Shown: positions 2,862 to 9,634 of the stretch, piece by piece
Layout: every line of letters starts with the position of its first letter
Numbering within the stretch: position 1 is the stretch's first letter
Source of the DNA: Escherichia coli
GTDB lineage: Bacteria; Pseudomonadota; Gammaproteobacteria; Enterobacterales; Enterobacteriaceae
DNA length: 64,000 nucleotides
Reading direction: 5' to 3' (one strand)
Assembly: GCF_024223415.1 (NCBI RefSeq)
Contig: NZ_CP100500.1
The notes under the pieces: model-generated
What the model was told of the DNA's origin: nothing
Seen by the model: the letters and a program-made list of their open reading frames with translations, nothing else
Databases searched by the model: none
Program-made: the position numbers and the translations under genes

Positions 2862-3119
2862 ATGCACACATCAGAAAAATTTAACAATCAGAAGAAATCA
2901 CATAACCGCGCCATTGACCTTACAGAGCACTGGCTGAGGGTGGCGATAAAAATCATCGACCGCAACGCGGGAGAAGGATACGCGAAAGCACATCCCGAAC
3001 TGATAAGCGCATTCATGACCACAGCGGCGGCAAACTTTGCCACGTTGACAGAACGGGAGATTGCCGAAGCGGAACAGGTGACAACCATCAATGTTAAAAC
3101 CGGAGAGCAGACAGCATGA
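2862..3119 (+). CDS. hypothetical protein (85 aa)
   Basis: ORF in track with GGGGG RBS upstream; stop overlaps next gene start. Confidence 0.4.
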   Translation: MHTSEKFNNQKKSHNRAIDLTEHWLRVAIKIIDRNAGEGYAKAHPELISAFMTTAAANFATLTEREIAEAEQVTTINVKTGEQTA

Positions 3120-3526
3120 CAGCACAGATAGCGGCTTACGGGCGGCTGGTGGACGACCCGCAGACAAAACAGACCAGCAAGGGAACACCGATGACGCTGG
3201 CACGTATGGCGGTATCGCTGCCATGCAGCCAGGCACAGGATGGACAGGCGACGTTATGGCTATCGGTCATCGCATTTGGTAAGCAGGCCGACTTCCTGGC
3301 TAAACATCAAAAAGGCGACGTTGCCAGCGTATCCGGCACGATGCAGGTCAGCCAGTGGACCGGACAGAACGGGGAAACGCGGCAGGGTTATCAGGTTATT
3401 GCAGACAGCGTAATCAGTGCCCGTGCGGCACGTCCTGGCGGGAACAGACGCAAAACCACAGGCACACAGGGTAATCAGCCACCAGCGGGAGGCGATGACC
3501 CTTACGGTGATGATATTCCGTTCTGA
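3116..3526 (+). CDS. single-stranded DNA-binding protein (SSB-like, OB fold with acidic DDIPF tail)
   Basis: 136 aa; N-terminal OB-fold-like region, Gly/Pro/Gln-rich linker and C-terminal ...DDPYGDDIPF characteristic of SSB tails. Confidence 0.6.
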   Translation: MTAQIAAYGRLVDDPQTKQTSKGTPMTLARMAVSLPCSQAQDGQATLWLSVIAFGKQADFLAKHQKGDVASVSGTMQVSQWTGQNGETRQGYQVIADSVISARAARPGGNRRKTTGTQGNQPPAGGDDPYGDDIPF

Positions 3527-3536
3527 GGGGGTGACG

Positions 3537-3809
3537 ATGGTACATGACCGGATAGCGGAGGAACTGGAGGCGAAAGGATTTTACCGGAGGGCGGCCGCGC
3601 GATGGGGTGAAGTTATGAGGCTGGTGAGCACTGACAAGGAGCGCGAACAGGTGGCAATGCGACGGCTGGAATGTTCACAGAAGGCACAGAGGCCACCGGA
3701 GCCGCCGGATGATTTAGGCGCTCTGAAAAGGTCAGTTAATCGCACTGAAAAACAAATGGGGATAGCTGGTATTGGCAAAGCAATATGGCGCAACTACCCG
3801 CAGAAGTGA
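3537..3809 (+). CDS. PerC-family-like transcriptional regulator (about 90 aa)
   Basis: Internal ATG at 3537 with GAGGGGG RBS; sequence MVHDRIAEELEAKGFYRRAAARWGEVM resembles N-terminal signature I recall for PerC/Pch-like activators; assignment from memory only. Confidence 0.45.
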   Translation: MVHDRIAEELEAKGFYRRAAARWGEVMRLVSTDKEREQVAMRRLECSQKAQRPPEPPDDLGALKRSVNRTEKQMGIAGIGKAIWRNYPQK

Positions 3810-3816
3810 GCACACA

Positions 3817-3839
3817 GCCGGAGCAATCCGGCTTTTTTG
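3817..3839 (+). terminator. rho-independent terminator
   Basis: GCCGGAGCAATCCGGC hairpin followed by TTTTTT. Confidence 0.6.
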
Positions 3840-3844
3840 CACCC

Positions 3845-3890
3845 AAAAAAAGCCCGATAAGTACAGGAGGCATCTTATCGGGCTTTTGCA
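3845..3890. terminator. second hairpin, possibly bidirectional terminator
   Basis: A-run, AGCCCGATAAG ... CTTATCGGGCT inverted repeat, then T-rich. Confidence 0.45.
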
Positions 3891-3966
3891 TATGAGGTTT
3901 TTTTTGGTGCACTGACACACATGATCGGGATAATCATTTCATAATTTGCAACGTAACTCAATATTG

Positions 3967-3994
3967 TTGCGCAAAATGCAATCATGATTATAAT
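3967..3994 (+). promoter_or_regulatory. sigma70-like promoter (-35 TTGCGC, 16 bp spacer, -10 TATAAT) upstream of capsid module
   Basis: Consensus -10 TATAAT at 3989-3994 with -35-like TTGCGC at 3967-3972; followed by perfect 8+2+8 palindrome CTGGATGAACATCCAG at about 4001-4016. Confidence 0.45.
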
Positions 3995-4050
3995 CAGGAC
4001 TGGATGAACATCCAGTTATGATTTTTTAAGTCAAAGAGGAATTTCTGACT

Positions 4051-4257
4051 ATGGCAGAAGAGAAAAAAGGCGGGGTGACGGTCTACATAAGCCCCGACAT
4101 CGTGGAGGCGCTCAAGGAACGCCACCAGCAGAATGTAAAAGCAGGCATTGCGGCAGGACTTGATCCGCTGGCGATGGTTGAGCCGTCAACAGGCTGGCAG
4201 GTGCGTACCTATTTACGTGCGGCGCTGGGTATCAATCAGGTTCACGGAGGTGAATAA
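4051..4257 (+). CDS. hypothetical small protein (68 aa), first gene of capsid module
   Basis: ORF in track with AAGAGGAA RBS; stop overlaps start of major capsid gene. Confidence 0.45.
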   Translation: MAEEKKGGVTVYISPDIVEALKERHQQNVKAGIAAGLDPLAMVEPSTGWQVRTYLRAALGINQVHGGE

Positions 4258-5312
4258 TGACAGGCAAAGCAACGGCACTTACAACTAACCAGCTTTTCGC
4301 GTACCTGAATCGCGGGGATATTTCGGAATTAAAATTCAGTCCGCTGTTTACCACGCTGTTTTTCCCGAACGTGGCGACCTTCAACACCCAAAACATCATG
4401 CTGGACACCCTGGACATTGAAGAGGTTACGATGTCAGCGTTCTGTTCGCCTATGGTGGGTAGTCAGGTCCAGCGCGATAAAGGGTACGAAACCAGCACAA
4501 TCAAACCTGGCTACATGAAGCCAAAGCACGAAATCGATCCAACAAAGACCATCATGCGCATGGCTGGAGAAGATCCGGCACAGCTTAACGACCCAACCTA
4601 TCGCCGTATGCGCCTGATTACTGGCAACATGCGCCGCCAGGTAAACGCCATTAAAGCGCGTGTTGAATGGCTGGCGGTGAATGCGGTAACGACCGGAAAA
4701 AACATCATTGAGGGCGAAGGCATAGAACGCTATGAAATCGACTGGAAAATACCGGAAAACTGCATCATACAGCAGGCCAGTGGTAAAAAATGGTCCCAGC
4801 AGGATAAAGACATGCACGACCCAATCTATGACATCGAGCTTTATGCTGATCAGGCAGGTTGCCCCGCCAACGTCATGATTATGGGCGGTGAGGTATGGCG
4901 CACATTACGCAGCTTTAAAAAATTCCGTGAACTGTACGATCTTTCCCGTGGATCAGAATCCGCCGCCGAGCTGGCCTGTAAAAACCTGGGCGAAGTGGTG
5001 AGCTTTAAAGGCTATCTTGGTGATCTGGCCCTTATCGTCTATTCCGGCAAATACACTGACAGCGACGGCACCGAAAAATATTTCCTTGAGCCTGATTTGC
5101 TGGTCCTGGGTAACACCAATAATAAAGGGCTGGTGGCATATGGTGCGATTATGGATCAGGAAGCGGTAAGAACGGGCGCAACGCAAAACATGTACTACCC
5201 GAAAAACTGGATTGAGGACGGCGATCCGGCGATTGAGTACGTGCAGACGCACAGCGCACCGCAGCCGGTACCGGCAGATATTCGCAAATTTGTTACCGTC
5301 AAAATTGCTTAA
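4257..5312 (+). CDS. major capsid protein, lambda gpE family
   Basis: 351 aa; segments FSPLFTTLFFPN and PGYMKPKHEIDP match lambda gpE (FDPLFLRLFFRES, PGYVKPKHEVNP) as I recall it; similar length (341 aa) and conserved C-terminal block. Confidence 0.8.
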   Translation: MTGKATALTTNQLFAYLNRGDISELKFSPLFTTLFFPNVATFNTQNIMLDTLDIEEVTMSAFCSPMVGSQVQRDKGYETSTIKPGYMKPKHEIDPTKTIMRMAGEDPAQLNDPTYRRMRLITGNMRRQVNAIKARVEWLAVNAVTTGKNIIEGEGIERYEIDWKIPENCIIQQASGKKWSQQDKDMHDPIYDIELYADQAGCPANVMIMGGEVWRTLRSFKKFRELYDLSRGSESAAELACKNLGEVVSFKGYLGDLALIVYSGKYTDSDGTEKYFLEPDLLVLGNTNNKGLVAYGAIMDQEAVRTGATQNMYYPKNWIEDGDPAIEYVQTHSAPQPVPADIRKFVTVKIA

Positions 5313-5323
5313 CGGGGGATTCT

Positions 5324-5659
5324 ATGGACGCTCCATATATTGAGTTATTTGCAGGCAGCCAGCAGGTATCCACGACGCTGGTACATTTTGCCGCTGATGC
5401 TGGCGTTATTCAGGAATTTACCCCGCTGATGCTGGCAGACAATGGCGAGTTTAAGGCGTGGGATGGTCAGGAATCTGGCAAAGCTGTTTATCTGACTTCG
5501 CACCCCGTGGACACGTCAAAGCAGAAATCAGCACAGTGTTACAAAACGGGGATATTCAATATTGCCGCCGTTAACTGGCCTGACAGCGTCGACACCGATG
5601 CGAAAAAATGCGCCGCCTTTGCGGGTTCCGGCGTATCCGTTCAGCCGCTGGCCCGATAA
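5324..5659 (+). CDS. head decoration protein, lambda gpD family
   Basis: 111 aa; TPLMLADNGEFKAWDG and YKTGIFN...AAFAGSGVSV match lambda gpD (TPLMLDTSSRKLVAWDG, YKSGTF...TAFAGTAISIV); same size as gpD. Confidence 0.7.
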   Translation: MDAPYIELFAGSQQVSTTLVHFAADAGVIQEFTPLMLADNGEFKAWDGQESGKAVYLTSHPVDTSKQKSAQCYKTGIFNIAAVNWPDSVDTDAKKCAAFAGSGVSVQPLAR

Positions 5660-5671
5660 GCAGGGGGAACG

Positions 5672-6085
5672 ATGGCAACGAATGAAAGTATCATGACGCT
5701 ACCGCTGGCGAGTAAATTTAAAGCCGAAGCGCGGGCAATGGCTGACAGAGGTTTATCAACCTACGAGGCCATACACCGACTAAACAAACTGGAAGAACAG
5801 GACAAGCCGCGCGCTGATGCGATTATGGCGCTTCATGAATCTGACGACTACCAGCCGCTGTTACGTGCAATGGCTAACGTGCCTTGTATCGATGTTGGTA
5901 CGGCTAAAAGCATCCTTAGCATGACCATAGAGCAGGAACGCCCGAAGGTTGCACCAGAGCTTACTTCAGCCTTTGAAAACTTTATGGACATGCACAGCCC
6001 GAAAGCCGTATCAGCTGGCATGGCATACGATGGCAGAACCCCGTGCGATGACGGCGACATCGACCGCATACTGAAAACCATCTGA
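5672..6085 (+). CDS. hypothetical protein (137 aa) of capsid/packaging module
   Basis: ORF in track with GGGGGA RBS; no family recognised. Confidence 0.45.
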   Translation: MATNESIMTLPLASKFKAEARAMADRGLSTYEAIHRLNKLEEQDKPRADAIMALHESDDYQPLLRAMANVPCIDVGTAKSILSMTIEQERPKVAPELTSAFENFMDMHSPKAVSAGMAYDGRTPCDDGDIDRILKTI

Positions 6086-6091
6086 GACAAG

Positions 6092-6115
6092 GCCGGAGAA
6101 ATCCGGCTTTTTTTG
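6092..6115 (+). terminator. rho-independent terminator
   Basis: GCCGGAGAAATCCGGC hairpin followed by TTTTTTT; same terminator module as at 3817. Confidence 0.6.
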
Positions 6116-6200
6116 CGGGTCCTTTCCGGCATGTGGACCCGTTACGGGGCGTCGACCTCGCACGTTTTCGCTATTTATGACGTTTTTCCGTGAAGGTGAC
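6110..6200 (+). other. lambda-type cos site 1 (cosQ-like, cosN GGGCGTCGACCT at 6147-6158, downstream segment)
   Basis: GGGTCCTTTCCGG...GTTACGGGGCGTCGACCTCGCACGTTTTCGCTATTTATGA closely matches the lambda cos region as I recall it (ACGGGTCCTTTCCGG...GTTACGGGGCGGCGACCTCGCGGGTTTTCGCTATTTATGAAAATTTTCCGG). Confidence 0.7.
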
Positions 6201-6247
6201 ACCACCACCACTTGATTAATATTTAACCATGTAGTTAAGGTAACATT

Positions 6248-6682
6248 ATGATTGATAAAGCTTGTTTTGTAAGTCAGCAGGAAATAGCTGAACATTTCAA
6301 TGTTAACAGAACCACTATTCGCGCATGGACCAAACAGGGGATGCCGTATCTTAATGCGGATCGCGGAAAGTCTGGCGGTTATCACATCGGGCATACATTG
6401 TTTTGGTATTCAGGTAAAAGCCATCTTCAGACCATCGGATATCACGTAGAAACCAGTGCGCTGGAAAAAATTATGTTTGCCAGGCTGCTTTCATCTGAGC
6501 GTGACGAGTACTCCAGTGAAGAAACAGAACATCGATTTGATGAAGGTTTGCAGATTTACGGCTATTCACCGGAAGATGTGAGCAAGGCACGAAATAAAAT
6601 GGCTGGCTTTCTGGCTGGGTGGCGTCATGCCGTAAGCGTTCGCCGTGCCAGCATGGAGCAATCAGCCGATACAGAACAGTAA
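6248..6682 (+). CDS. terminase small subunit, lambda Nu1-like (N-terminal winged HTH)
   Basis: 144 aa; QQEIAEHFNVNRTTIRAWTKQGMPYL...HTLFWYSGK aligns with lambda Nu1 KKQLADIFGASIRTIQNWQEQGMPVL...AVIKWYAER; about 90 bp downstream of cosN-like site as in lambda. Confidence 0.7.
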   Translation: MIDKACFVSQQEIAEHFNVNRTTIRAWTKQGMPYLNADRGKSGGYHIGHTLFWYSGKSHLQTIGYHVETSALEKIMFARLLSSERDEYSSEETEHRFDEGLQIYGYSPEDVSKARNKMAGFLAGWRHAVSVRRASMEQSADTEQ

Positions 6683-6729
6683 AGCCGATAACTTGTTAAT
6701 CACGCGCAGCAATGCGTGTGATTTTTGCA

Positions 6730-7366: not shown

Positions 7367-7670
7367 GCTTAATCGCTAACCCGCTGATATTTTCGGAAAC
7401 ATCAATTTGAGGAAGTCGGCGCGGTAACTCGCTGAACTTAAAGCAAAGCGCAAAATTGCGCTGATTACTGGTTGGAATTGTTCCAGAGTGCAAATTTGCA
7501 CTCTGGCCTAACCCGTTGATTATTTCGAAAACCTGCAATGCAGGAAATCGGGGAAGTAAGCCTAAGCTATTGATTGTTTCGAAAACCACCATTGGGGGAT
7601 GTCGGGAAAGTAAGACTAACCCATTGATTCTTCCACAATCCTCAATGTGAGGAGGCCGGACATCGTGACA
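7367..7670. repeat. four imperfect direct repeats of about 54 bp (CTAACCCNTTGAT...GTAAG), three in tandem
   Basis: Units at about 7373-7427, 7507-7560, 7562-7615, 7616-7670 share CTAACCC(G/A)(C/T)TGAT ... TCGG..AAGTAAG and each contains a short internal inverted repeat. Confidence 0.6.
7483..7506. promoter_or_regulatory. 24-bp perfect palindrome CCAGAGTGCAAATTTGCACTCTGG
   Basis: Perfect dyad symmetry seen directly; nearby related inverted repeats GCGCAA-AA-TTGCGC at 7448-7461 and CGCAA-AA-TTGCG at 7264-7275. Confidence 0.5.
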
Positions 7671-7954
7671 GAGCGTGACAACCAGGTAACTAATCTCGCT
7701 GGTGGGCGTGATGTCGATATGGTGATCCCCATAACGGGTTATCCGTGATCATCCACCAGCTTCATGGCAGATAGCCGGAAAATGATAACGGTTAAGCAAA
7801 ACTGCCAGCAAATTTCCCTTTTGTTTGTTATTGTTCGTCGTTGTTCGTAGAGCTTCAACAAAATGTGTGGTCAGTTGTGTGGTCAGTTTTGAGGTTTTTA
7901 ATTCTTATGTGCTGAAAAACTTATTAATTATCAACTGATAACAAAAATTAGTAA

Positions 7955-8048
7955 GAAATACCCGTATCACCTGATCTGGATAATGCCAGCGTAGGGAAGT
8001 CACGGACCACCAGGTCATTGCTTCTTCACGTTATGGCAGGAGCAAACT
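7955..8048 (+). promoter_or_regulatory. 3' portion of thiM TPP riboswitch (thi-box) and expression platform; 5' half of aptamer absent
   Basis: GAAATACCCGTATCACCTGATCTGGATAATGCCAGCGTAGGGAAGT matches the well-studied E. coli thiM aptamer 3' half from memory; expected upstream GGGGTGCCCTTCTGCGTGAAGGCTGA is replaced by AT-rich unrelated sequence. Confidence 0.6.
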
Positions 8049-8837
8049 ATGCAAGTCGACCTGCTGGGTTCAGCGCAATCTGCGCACGCGTTACACCTTT
8101 TTCACCAACATTCCCCTCTTGTGCACTGCATGACCAATGATGTGGTGCAAACCTTTACCGCCAATACCTTGCTGGCGCTCGGTGCATCGCCAGCGATGGT
8201 TATCGAAACCGAAGAGGCCAGTCAGTTTGCGGCTATCGCCAGTGCCTTGTTGATTAACGTTGGCACACTGACGCAGCCACGCGCTCAGGCGATGCGTGCT
8301 GCCGTTGAGCAAGCAAAAAGCTCTCAAACACCCTGGACGCTTGATCCAGTAGCGGTGGGTGCGCTCGATTATCGCCGCCATTTTTGTCATGAACTTTTAT
8401 CTTTTAAACCGGCAGCGATACGTGGTAATGCTTCGGAAATCATGGCATTAGCTGGCATTGCTAATGGCGGACGGGGAGTGGATACCACTGACGCCGCAGC
8501 TAACGCGATACCCGCTGCACAAACACTGGCACGGGAAACTGGCGCAATCGTCGTGGTCACTGGCGAGATGGATTATGTTACCGATGGACATCGTATCATT
8601 GGTATTCACGGTGGTGATCCGTTAATGACCAAAGTGGTAGGAACTGGCTGTGCATTATCGGCGGTTGTCGCTGCCTGCTGTGCGTTACCAGGCGATACGC
8701 TGGAAAATGTCGCATCTGCCTGTCACTGGATGAAACAAGCCGGAGAACGCGCAGTCGCCAGAAGCGAGGGGCCAGGCAGTTTTGTTCCACATTTCCTTGA
8801 TGCGCTCTGGCAATTGACGCAGGAGGTGCAGGCATGA
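8049..8837 (+). CDS. thiM: hydroxyethylthiazole kinase
   Basis: 262 aa ORF, recognised ThiM sequence; overlaps thiD start. Confidence 0.95.
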
Positions 8838-9634
8838 AACGAATTAACGCTCTGACGATTGCCGGTACTGATCCGAGTGGTGGTGCGGGGATTCAGGCCG
8901 ATCTTAAAACCTTCTCGGCACTTGGCGCTTATGGTTGCTCAGTTATTACTGCACTGGTGGCGCAAAATACCCGTGGCGTACAGTCGGTGTATCGCATTGA
9001 GCCTGATTTTGTCGCCGCCCAGCTCGATTCGGTGTTCAGCGATGTGCGAATCGATACCACTAAAATCGGTATGCTGGCGGAAACCGATATTGTTGAAGCG
9101 GTGGCAGAACGGTTGCAACGTTATCAGATCCAAAACGTGGTACTCGACACCGTTATGCTGGCAAAAAGCGGCGACCCGCTGCTTTCACCTTCGGCGGTTG
9201 CTACGCTGCGCAGTCGATTATTGCCACAGGTTTCATTAATAACGCCAAACTTGCCCGAAGCTGCCGCCTTGCTCGACGCGCCACACGCGCGCACCGAACA
9301 GGAAATGCTGGAACAAGGGCGATCGCTGTTGGCGATGGGCTGTGGCGCAGTGCTAATGAAAGGTGGTCATCTGGATGATGAGCAAAGCCCGGACTGGCTG
9401 TTTACCCGCGAGGGTGAACAACGGTTTACCGCACCGCGCATTATGACCAAAAACACCCACGGCACTGGTTGTACACTCTCTGCGGCGTTGGCTGCACTAC
9501 GCCCGCGCCATACAAACTGGGCTGACACCGTACAGGAGGCAAAAAGCTGGCTTTCATCGGCGTTAGCCCAGGCCGACACGCTGGAAGTTGGTCACGGTAT
9601 TGGTCCGGTTCACCACTTCCACGCCTGGTGGTGA
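8834..9634 (+). CDS. thiD: hydroxymethylpyrimidine / phosphomethylpyrimidine kinase
   Basis: 266 aa ORF, recognised ThiD. Confidence 0.95.

Follow-up and report, generated by a model that had tools for sequence, protein, structure and literature searches.

The intergenic region at 3888-4050 raises the question of how the capsid genes behind it are controlled. A promoter lies in this region with an inverted repeat at its predicted start, and the repeat could serve as the operator of a repressor, as a structure in the RNA, or as neither. The region was analyzed within a 64,000-nucleotide stretch of Escherichia coli DNA, referred to here as the window. A first-pass annotation of this DNA had described a near-consensus promoter with a perfect palindromic operator, a repressor-controlled switch for the capsid genes that might sense a signal from a helper phage.

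The island and its capsid operon

Positions 1 to ~7600 of the window are an EcCICFT073-like Gram-negative phage-inducible chromosomal island (PICI), an assignment based on the presence in the window of genes for a primase, SSB, PerC, capsid, decoration protein, and Rpp. The gene order is that of the PICIs EcCICFT073 and CP-933C (O-island 51), in which primase, SSB, PerC, a c1499-like capsid gene, a c1500-like decoration gene, and Rpp follow one another (PMC6092414, PMC6739421). The conserved intergenic promoter region is found in the O157 and Nissle 1917 copies as well. The window begins inside the island, so that int and alpA, which are present in close relatives, lie to the left of it. The right end of the island lies at ~7600-8049, shortly before thiM (8049-8837) and thiD (8834-9634). 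The following features make up the island around the intergenic region.

825-2573: primase gene
3116-3526: SSB gene
3537-3809, + strand: PerC-family regulator gene, the last of the upstream (replication) module (PHROG transcriptional-activator families; RefSeq "PerC family transcriptional regulator" in close relatives)
3816-3838, + strand: intrinsic-terminator-like hairpin AGCCGGAGCAATCCGGCT followed by TTTTTT, closing the upstream module (terminator scan)
3845-3887, no strand assigned: second terminator, bidirectional-looking, with an A-run, GCCCGATAAG...CTTATCGGGC, and a T-run (sequence reading; conserved in relatives)
4051-4257, + strand: 68-aa ORF, phrog_3255, translationally coupled to the capsid gene and always first after the promoter
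4257-5312, + strand: major capsid homologue of the lambda gpE type (phrog_29, E 3e-109; PF03864 in relatives)
5324-5659, + strand: head decoration homologue of the lambda gpD type (phrog_49, E 1.5e-27; PF02924 in relatives)
5672-6085, + strand: 137-aa protein that resembles head maturation proteases in their C-terminal portion, the scaffold (phrog_1999; phrog_53, E 1e-7)
6248-6682, + strand: Rpp (redirecting phage packaging) homologue of 144 aa with a wHTH small-terminase-like N-terminus (PDB 6HLK RppC, E 1.6e-33)
6701-6727, + strand: first terminator-like site after the promoter

The two terminators at 3816-3838 and 3845-3887 insulate the capsid/Rpp module from the upstream module and leave the intergenic region 3888-4050 between them and the first ORF. 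A conserved promoter within this region precedes the capsid/packaging genes of the satellite (capsid gene at 4257), in agreement with the first-pass description of a promoter in front of a capsid module. No terminator-like site was found on the + strand between 4017 and 6701, and the operon probably ends at 6701-6727. The 163-bp gap at 6086-6247, before the Rpp gene, contains weak promoter-like sites at 6196 and 6223 and could hold a cos site or a separate promoter. In an Edwardsiella relative, a lambda-type portal gene (Phage_portal_2; L017:4620-5213) stands after the capsid and decoration genes, an arrangement that points to a fuller head module downstream of this promoter type.

The PerC-family gene lies between the SSB gene and the promoter, and it is variably present among relatives. 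It is missing in L004 and in L008-L011, whose promoter is nonetheless unaltered, which makes an obligatory role for PerC in regulating the capsid promoter unlikely.

The promoter and the dyad at its predicted start

The elements of the intergenic region, with positions relative to the predicted start where these apply, are as follows.

3937-3951, no strand assigned: distal conserved dyad TTTCA-N5-TGCAA, centered at about -57 (TTKCA-N5-TGMAA across deep clades)
3967-3972, + strand: -35 hexamer TTGCGC, with 3/6 matches to TTGACA; its TTGC is invariant in the family
3967-3981, no strand assigned: proximal conserved dyad TTGCG-N5-TGCAA, centered at about -27 and overlapping the -35 hexamer and the spacer
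3989-3994, + strand: -10 hexamer TATAAT, a 6/6 match; TAAAAT in divergent clades
3998-4017, no strand assigned: candidate LexA (SOS) box GACTGGATGAACATCCAGTT, with a heterology index (HI) of 8.15, which would span about -3 to +17
4022-4027, + strand: T6 run in the leader, 5 nt past the dyad (sequence reading)
4034-4040, + strand: Shine-Dalgarno sequence AAGAGGA of the first ORF (sequence reading; nearly invariant in the alignment)

Read directly from the sequence, the two hexamers are separated by a 16-bp spacer (3973-3988). This arrangement, with hexamers 16 to 18 bp apart, is that of a sigma-70 promoter, and its start site is predicted. The label "near-consensus" overstates the match: the -10 hexamer is perfect, but the spacer has 16 bp and the -35 hexamer matches the consensus at only 3/6 positions, and TTGCGC-16-TATAAT falls below the threshold of a promoter scan of the window, which does not list it. 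Seven sites in the window combine TATAAT with a -35 hexamer that agrees with the consensus at three or more of six positions, so such a pattern alone is not rare. The core pattern that is invariant among relatives, TTGC-N6-TGCAAT-N3-GNTTAWAAT, occurs once in the window, with 0 occurrences expected.

Downstream of the -10 hexamer, the sequence runs through CAGG, the dyad at 3999-4016, TATGA, the T6 run, and the Shine-Dalgarno sequence to the ATG at 4051. Transcription is predicted to start at ~3999-4002. The dyad has the form ACTGGATG-AA-CATCCAGT, with 8-bp arms around a central AA, and it contains the 16-mer repeat CTGGATGAACATCCAG at 4000-4015, with 7-bp arms around the same nonpalindromic center. 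The first-pass annotation had placed a perfect inverted repeat at about 4001-4016; the repeat is present, one base further to the left, and the central AA makes it imperfect. Located 6 bp after the -10 hexamer, it would overlap the predicted start, as had been suggested.

Counting perfect repeats whose arms span 7 bp or more and whose spacer does not exceed 6 bp, the window has 52, versus 17-36 in five shuffled sequences. With 52 comparable repeats in the window, an inverted repeat alone is not rare. What goes beyond chance at this locus is the conservation and the LexA-box score, not the repeat or the promoter hexamers by themselves.

LexA boxes of gammaproteobacteria follow the consensus TACTG(TA)5CAGTA, that is, a CTG-N10-CAG geometry (PMC6590174), and they typically overlap the start site (PMC8072944). 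The 20-mer GACTGGATGAACATCCAGTT at 3998-4017 is a dyad of this geometry (20-bp consensus TACTGTATATATATACAGTA). To score it, the HI matrix was rebuilt by regression from 140 pairs of E. coli K-12 20-mers and HI values (PMC12527982, Table S1); the recovered matrix is additive, with an rmse of 0.0004. It gives the candidate box an HI of 8.15, which is within the LexA-binding range, since the published low-HI (LexA-binding) cluster has an upper bound of 13.6 and a peak at 7.3 (PMC12527982). The window contains 19 CTG-N10-CAG sites. The single low-HI site among them is the one at 3998-4017, and the next best scores 15.75. By chance, an HI of 8.14 or lower is expected at 1.3e-7 per position, which corresponds to 0.008 sites in 64 kb and 0.64 in 5 Mb.

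Known E. coli boxes provide a scale for this value. Table S1 lists sequences and HI values without gene names, and the names are assigned here: the 20-mer CGCTGGATATCTATCCAGCA (HI 9.19) corresponds to the ruvAB box and AACTGTTTTTTTATCCAGTA (HI 6.11) to the uvrB box, with the recA box at HI 4.31. The capsid-promoter box scores better than the 20-mer assigned to ruvAB. It resembles the ruvAB and uvrB boxes in being a 20-bp dyad with CTGGAT and ATCCAG half-sites and an HI in the functional range, located at or next to a core promoter. Those SOS boxes govern DNA repair genes, whereas the candidate box heads the morphogenesis genes of a mobile element. Its placement at the predicted core promoter is also that of a LexA box, as it lies 4 nt past the -10 hexamer in 98/98 box-bearing loci.

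On the basis of this match, we consider it likely that LexA binds the site at 3998-4017. The wider reading, that the dyad spans the start of a sigma-70 promoter for a morphogenesis/interference operon and is an operator of the host LexA (SOS) repressor, is the one we favor, with a confidence somewhat better than even. From the properties computed here (sequence, LexA score, rarity, fixed position, and conservation pattern), we infer the start site, the occupancy by LexA, and the regulatory effect. The promoter would drive expression of the 68-aa ORF, the capsid and decoration homologues, the scaffold-like protein, and probably also Rpp. In cells free of damage, LexA bound as a dimer across about -3 to +17 would hinder RNA polymerase. 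DNA damage would activate RecA and cause LexA to cleave itself, and the operon would then be freed at the moment when a lambdoid helper prophage is induced. Under such control, the signal would be DNA damage, by way of RecA-stimulated LexA cleavage, and not a product of the helper phage; SOS would merely coincide with helper induction. The earlier suggestion that a helper phage signal is sensed at this site is not supported: the operator matches that of the host LexA (HI 8.15) and gives no indication of a repressor specific to the element or the helper, and helper sensing in the PICI family is documented at the alpA promoter (PMC6092414).

A different connection to a helper, mimicry of a helper late promoter or Q antitermination, was also considered and rejected. 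A search of 50,697 INPHARED phage records found no similar DNA (best E 0.03, a short AT-rich match), and no proper terminator follows the promoter.

Conservation of the box and alternative functions of the repeat

Of 5,426 complete E. coli genomes, about 612-619 contain the promoter region, among them O157:H7 (CP-933C/O-island 51) and Nissle 1917. For footprinting, 15 aligned E. coli copies were combined with Salmonella, Edwardsiella, and metagenomic relatives found via the 68-aa protein, and ~80 further copies were added by scanning IMG/VR with the invariant promoter core. The useful loci came from viral contigs: a DNA-pattern scan of genome contigs returned only chance matches in unrelated AT-rich genomes, and a search of genome contigs for related loci with the 68-aa protein found none. 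Of 112 related loci, 98 have the box at an identical offset, beginning exactly 4 nt downstream of the -10 hexamer; the loci are far from independent, many of them being near-identical.

These 98 loci contain 14 distinct 20-mers. The CTG and CAG are invariant, the HI is 5.4-9.9 throughout, and the variants of the relatives shift toward the LexA consensus, for example, ...CATACAG and ACTGTATATAAATTCAGT. In the relatives L020 and L021, the box differs from that of the window at 6/20 positions, and yet the HI values are 7.68 and 5.36 (TACTGTATATAAATTCAGTT). An equal number of random substitutions reaches these scores in 5e-4 and 4e-5 of trials, respectively. In Salmonella, a change of G..C to A..T looks compensatory, yet at box positions 9 and 12 it simply yields the bases of the LexA consensus. 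The p-values for L020 and L021, together with the HI range across the 14 variants, indicate purifying selection on LexA-likeness.

The repeat might instead act in RNA, either as a 5'-terminal stem-loop that stabilizes the mRNA or, with the T-run, as a leader attenuator or terminator. The terminator scan does list 3998-4017 plus the T-run, and if the RNA starts at 3999, its 5' end would fold into a hairpin of 7 bp (-7.5 kcal/mol, z = -2.98). Most related clades retain the T-run, among them the ones that lack the dyad, and it is missing in L020 and L021. The stability of the hairpin, however, depends on the start position, as a start at 4002 leaves only -3.2 kcal/mol (z = -0.5). The stem contains only three G-C pairs, and the U-run begins after a 5-nt gap. 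In 5 of the 14 box variants, an uncompensated G.A or U.U mismatch in mid-stem leaves only -1 to -2 kcal/mol, while the HI is 5.4-8.1, in several cases an improvement in the LexA score. The clades that lack the box form no stable hairpin. An intrinsic terminator or attenuator, which should have a stable G+C-rich stem directly followed by a U-tract and conserved as a structure, was rejected on these grounds. An Rfam search gave sub-threshold chance matches only. A function in RNA is therefore very improbable. To judge by the variants, the conserved property is LexA-likeness and not base pairing, because variants break the stem and yet keep a low HI.

The dyad could also be the operator of another repressor, encoded by the island or by the helper, with its likeness to a LexA box being a coincidence or mimicry. 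One example would be the 68-aa ORF, which always accompanies the promoter and might encode a ribbon-helix-helix autorepressor. Its product begins with the conserved GVxVYISPDIVEAL, after which two helices are predicted, and negative autoregulation by this protein would fit the flat expression in EDL933 described below. There is a faint match to BrnA, a ribbon-helix-helix antitoxin, with an E value of 0.36 for the protein of the window and 0.05 at best among the members of the alignment. This match is also the best that Pfam returned; NCBIfam returned none, and the best Foldseek match in the PDB has an E value of 3.9. None of these matches to a family or fold is significant, and the assignment of the 68-aa ORF as a ribbon-helix-helix autorepressor was rejected. 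An AF2 model of the protein (pLDDT 76) consists of an extended N-terminus and two helices.

The distribution of the protein and the direction of change in the dyad also argue against a private operator. The N-terminus of the 68-aa protein is identical in dyad-bearing and dyad-less clades, so that protein and dyad do not co-vary. The variants of the dyad move toward the LexA consensus, for which a private operator has no reason, and the two upstream dyads are better candidates for the sites of a private regulator. Control of the dyad by a repressor other than LexA is accordingly regarded as quite unlikely, and LexA remains the preferred binder.

Two clades lack the box and keep the promoter. 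In the 10 loci of the L012 type, decay of the box has left CTG-N10-ATG or GTG, and the 3 Edwardsiella loci have no box. Both clades retain the promoter, the upstream dyads, the T-run, and the Shine-Dalgarno sequence. Because two clades without the box retain the promoter, the box is dispensable. The box-less loci of E. coli (L012-L014, L023, L024, L107, L129, L156, and L159) and of Edwardsiella (L017, L018, and L105) are natural "box-minus" controls.

About 31 of the 112 related loci carry, 4-8 kb upstream of their capsid promoter, a second LexA-like box at the 3' end of int, in the int-alpA intergenic region. These int-end boxes have several unrelated sequence forms with HI values of 5.1-11.6 (for example, L139:1241-1260 and L194:5380-5399), and one of them, AACTGTACAAAAAACCAGTA, overlaps the int stop codon. 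The int-alpA region of the element in the window lies off its left end. Published alpA reporters are not SOS-inducible.

Expression in a relative, upstream dyads, and comparison with known systems

In strain EDL933, the element CP-933C belongs to the same type, shares the promoter, and carries a box of HI 7.6; expression data are available for it. After 2 h of ciprofloxacin treatment of EDL933, SOS genes were up 2- to 6.5-fold and the CP-933C primase was up 5.3-fold, whereas the capsid mRNA changed by -1.8-fold (PMC11125564 S1). The capsid protein was at 1.56-fold at 3 h and 1.03-fold at 12 h after ciprofloxacin (PMC11125564 S1), and this protein and a neighboring hypothetical protein were detectable in the uninduced proteome (PMC11125564). 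In a second data set, obtained at low sequencing depth, the capsid gene Z1847 had an RPKM of 2 in LB and 0 with antibiotics (PMC4048457). Z1846, just upstream of the capsid gene, had an RPKM of 69 in LB, versus 2 for the capsid gene.

In the one relative with data, SOS alone does not visibly induce the capsid operon, which, for one strain at late time points, is evidence against simple SOS control. Of the repressor-controlled switch proposed in the first-pass annotation, one part is retained, as a repressor operator at the start is the best reading of the dyad; the EDL933 expression argues against a simple on/off device. Even a high-quality LexA box need not lead to induction, as is known for the ssb box (PMC9505508). 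Possible reasons for the flat capsid expression in EDL933 are a second regulator acting at the upstream dyads, negative autoregulation of the operon, late sampling amid massive prophage induction, and a functionally weak box. Taking sequence and expression together, we put clear SOS induction from the candidate box in its native context at somewhat less than an even chance.

The same data bear on whether the box does anything at all. It might be real as a sequence and (nearly) inert, with a promoter that is approximately constitutive or run by whatever binds the upstream dyads, and with a box that is a decaying relic in some lineages. Such a reading would account for the absence of SOS induction of the EDL933 capsid gene in two data sets and for the detection of its protein without induction. 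It would also fit the loss of the box in two clades, and repeats of similar size are common in the window. An inert box is difficult to reconcile with the HI of 5.4-9.9 held in 14 variants, including the distant ones (p of 5e-4 to 4e-5 for L020 and L021), and the EDL933 data themselves represent one late time point, under massive prophage induction, in a cryptic element. We consider an inert box unlikely, although it retains a real share of the probability, and we continue to prefer a functional LexA operator.

The two upstream dyads, of the form TTKCA-N5-TGMAA and 30 bp apart, persist in E. coli, Salmonella, and Edwardsiella as well as in metagenomic relatives. The TTGC and TGCAAT of the proximal dyad are invariant in all relatives, Edwardsiella included, and the upstream dyads are more deeply conserved than the LexA box. 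In whole islands, TTKCA-N5-TGMAA occurs at the capsid promoter only, with 0.007-0.05 occurrences expected. This conservation suggests a second regulator, and since the dyads imply such a regulator, LexA is probably one input and not the whole switch. AlpA was rejected as the protein binding these dyads: in whole islands, the int-alpA region lacks the motif, so that no link to AlpA could be drawn. To our knowledge, the consensus sequences of CytR, CII, Fur, CRP, and the Mar box do not fit the upstream dyads either.

One arrangement that would combine these elements is a two-input gate. LexA at +1 would report DNA damage, a second protein on the dyads would report the state of the island or helper, and release would need both. 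We offer this gate tentatively, as a minority possibility. If true, it would account for the lack of induction by SOS alone in EDL933, and the intergenic region would be the late checkpoint of the satellite.

The proposed control has a counterpart in another group of satellites. Operon I of the SaPIs, the packaging/interference module of these Staphylococcus aureus elements, is LexA controlled (PMC5052747, citing Ubeda et al. 2007). Both elements are phage satellites (PICIs) in which an operon for capsid-remodeling or morphogenesis, packaging, and interference functions follows the replication module and has an operator of the host SOS repressor in its promoter, in the present case by sequence. 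The genes are cpmAB, terS, and pti in SaPI operon I and the capsid and decoration homologues and Rpp here. The two systems differ in that they belong to different phyla, with unrelated genes and an unrelated promoter, and the Gram-negative CTG-N10-CAG is not the Firmicutes box. LexA control has been demonstrated for the SaPIs, whereas here it is predicted, and the expression data from one relative show no induction. The likeness is thus an analogy of mechanism, with no homology.

Temperate phages and colicin plasmids also provide precedents. The coliphage 186 tum promoter and the colicin operons are LexA-repressed mobile-element genes that use the host LexA as a sensor of DNA damage. Those promoters control a lysogeny switch or a lethal product, whereas the promoter studied here precedes a structural/packaging module of a satellite whose induction proceeds via AlpA. 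The literature covered on Gram-negative PICIs places AlpA-dependent induction at the alpA promoter and mentions neither the capsid promoter nor LexA (PMC6092414, PMC6739421). Full-text literature searches found no paper linking LexA to AlpA-type PICIs or satellites, and a search by locus tag yielded unrelated papers only; as far as we could find, LexA control of this promoter is unreported for these islands.

If LexA binds this site, Gram-negative PICIs wire their capsid, decoration, and Rpp module straight to the host SOS response, as SaPI operon I does. This would amount to regulatory convergence between unrelated satellites. Two decisions within the island would also be separated, with induction and replication governed by AlpA and the helper phage and with morphogenesis and interference governed by LexA and something else. 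The element concerned is carried by about 11% of complete E. coli genomes, those of O157 and Nissle 1917 included.
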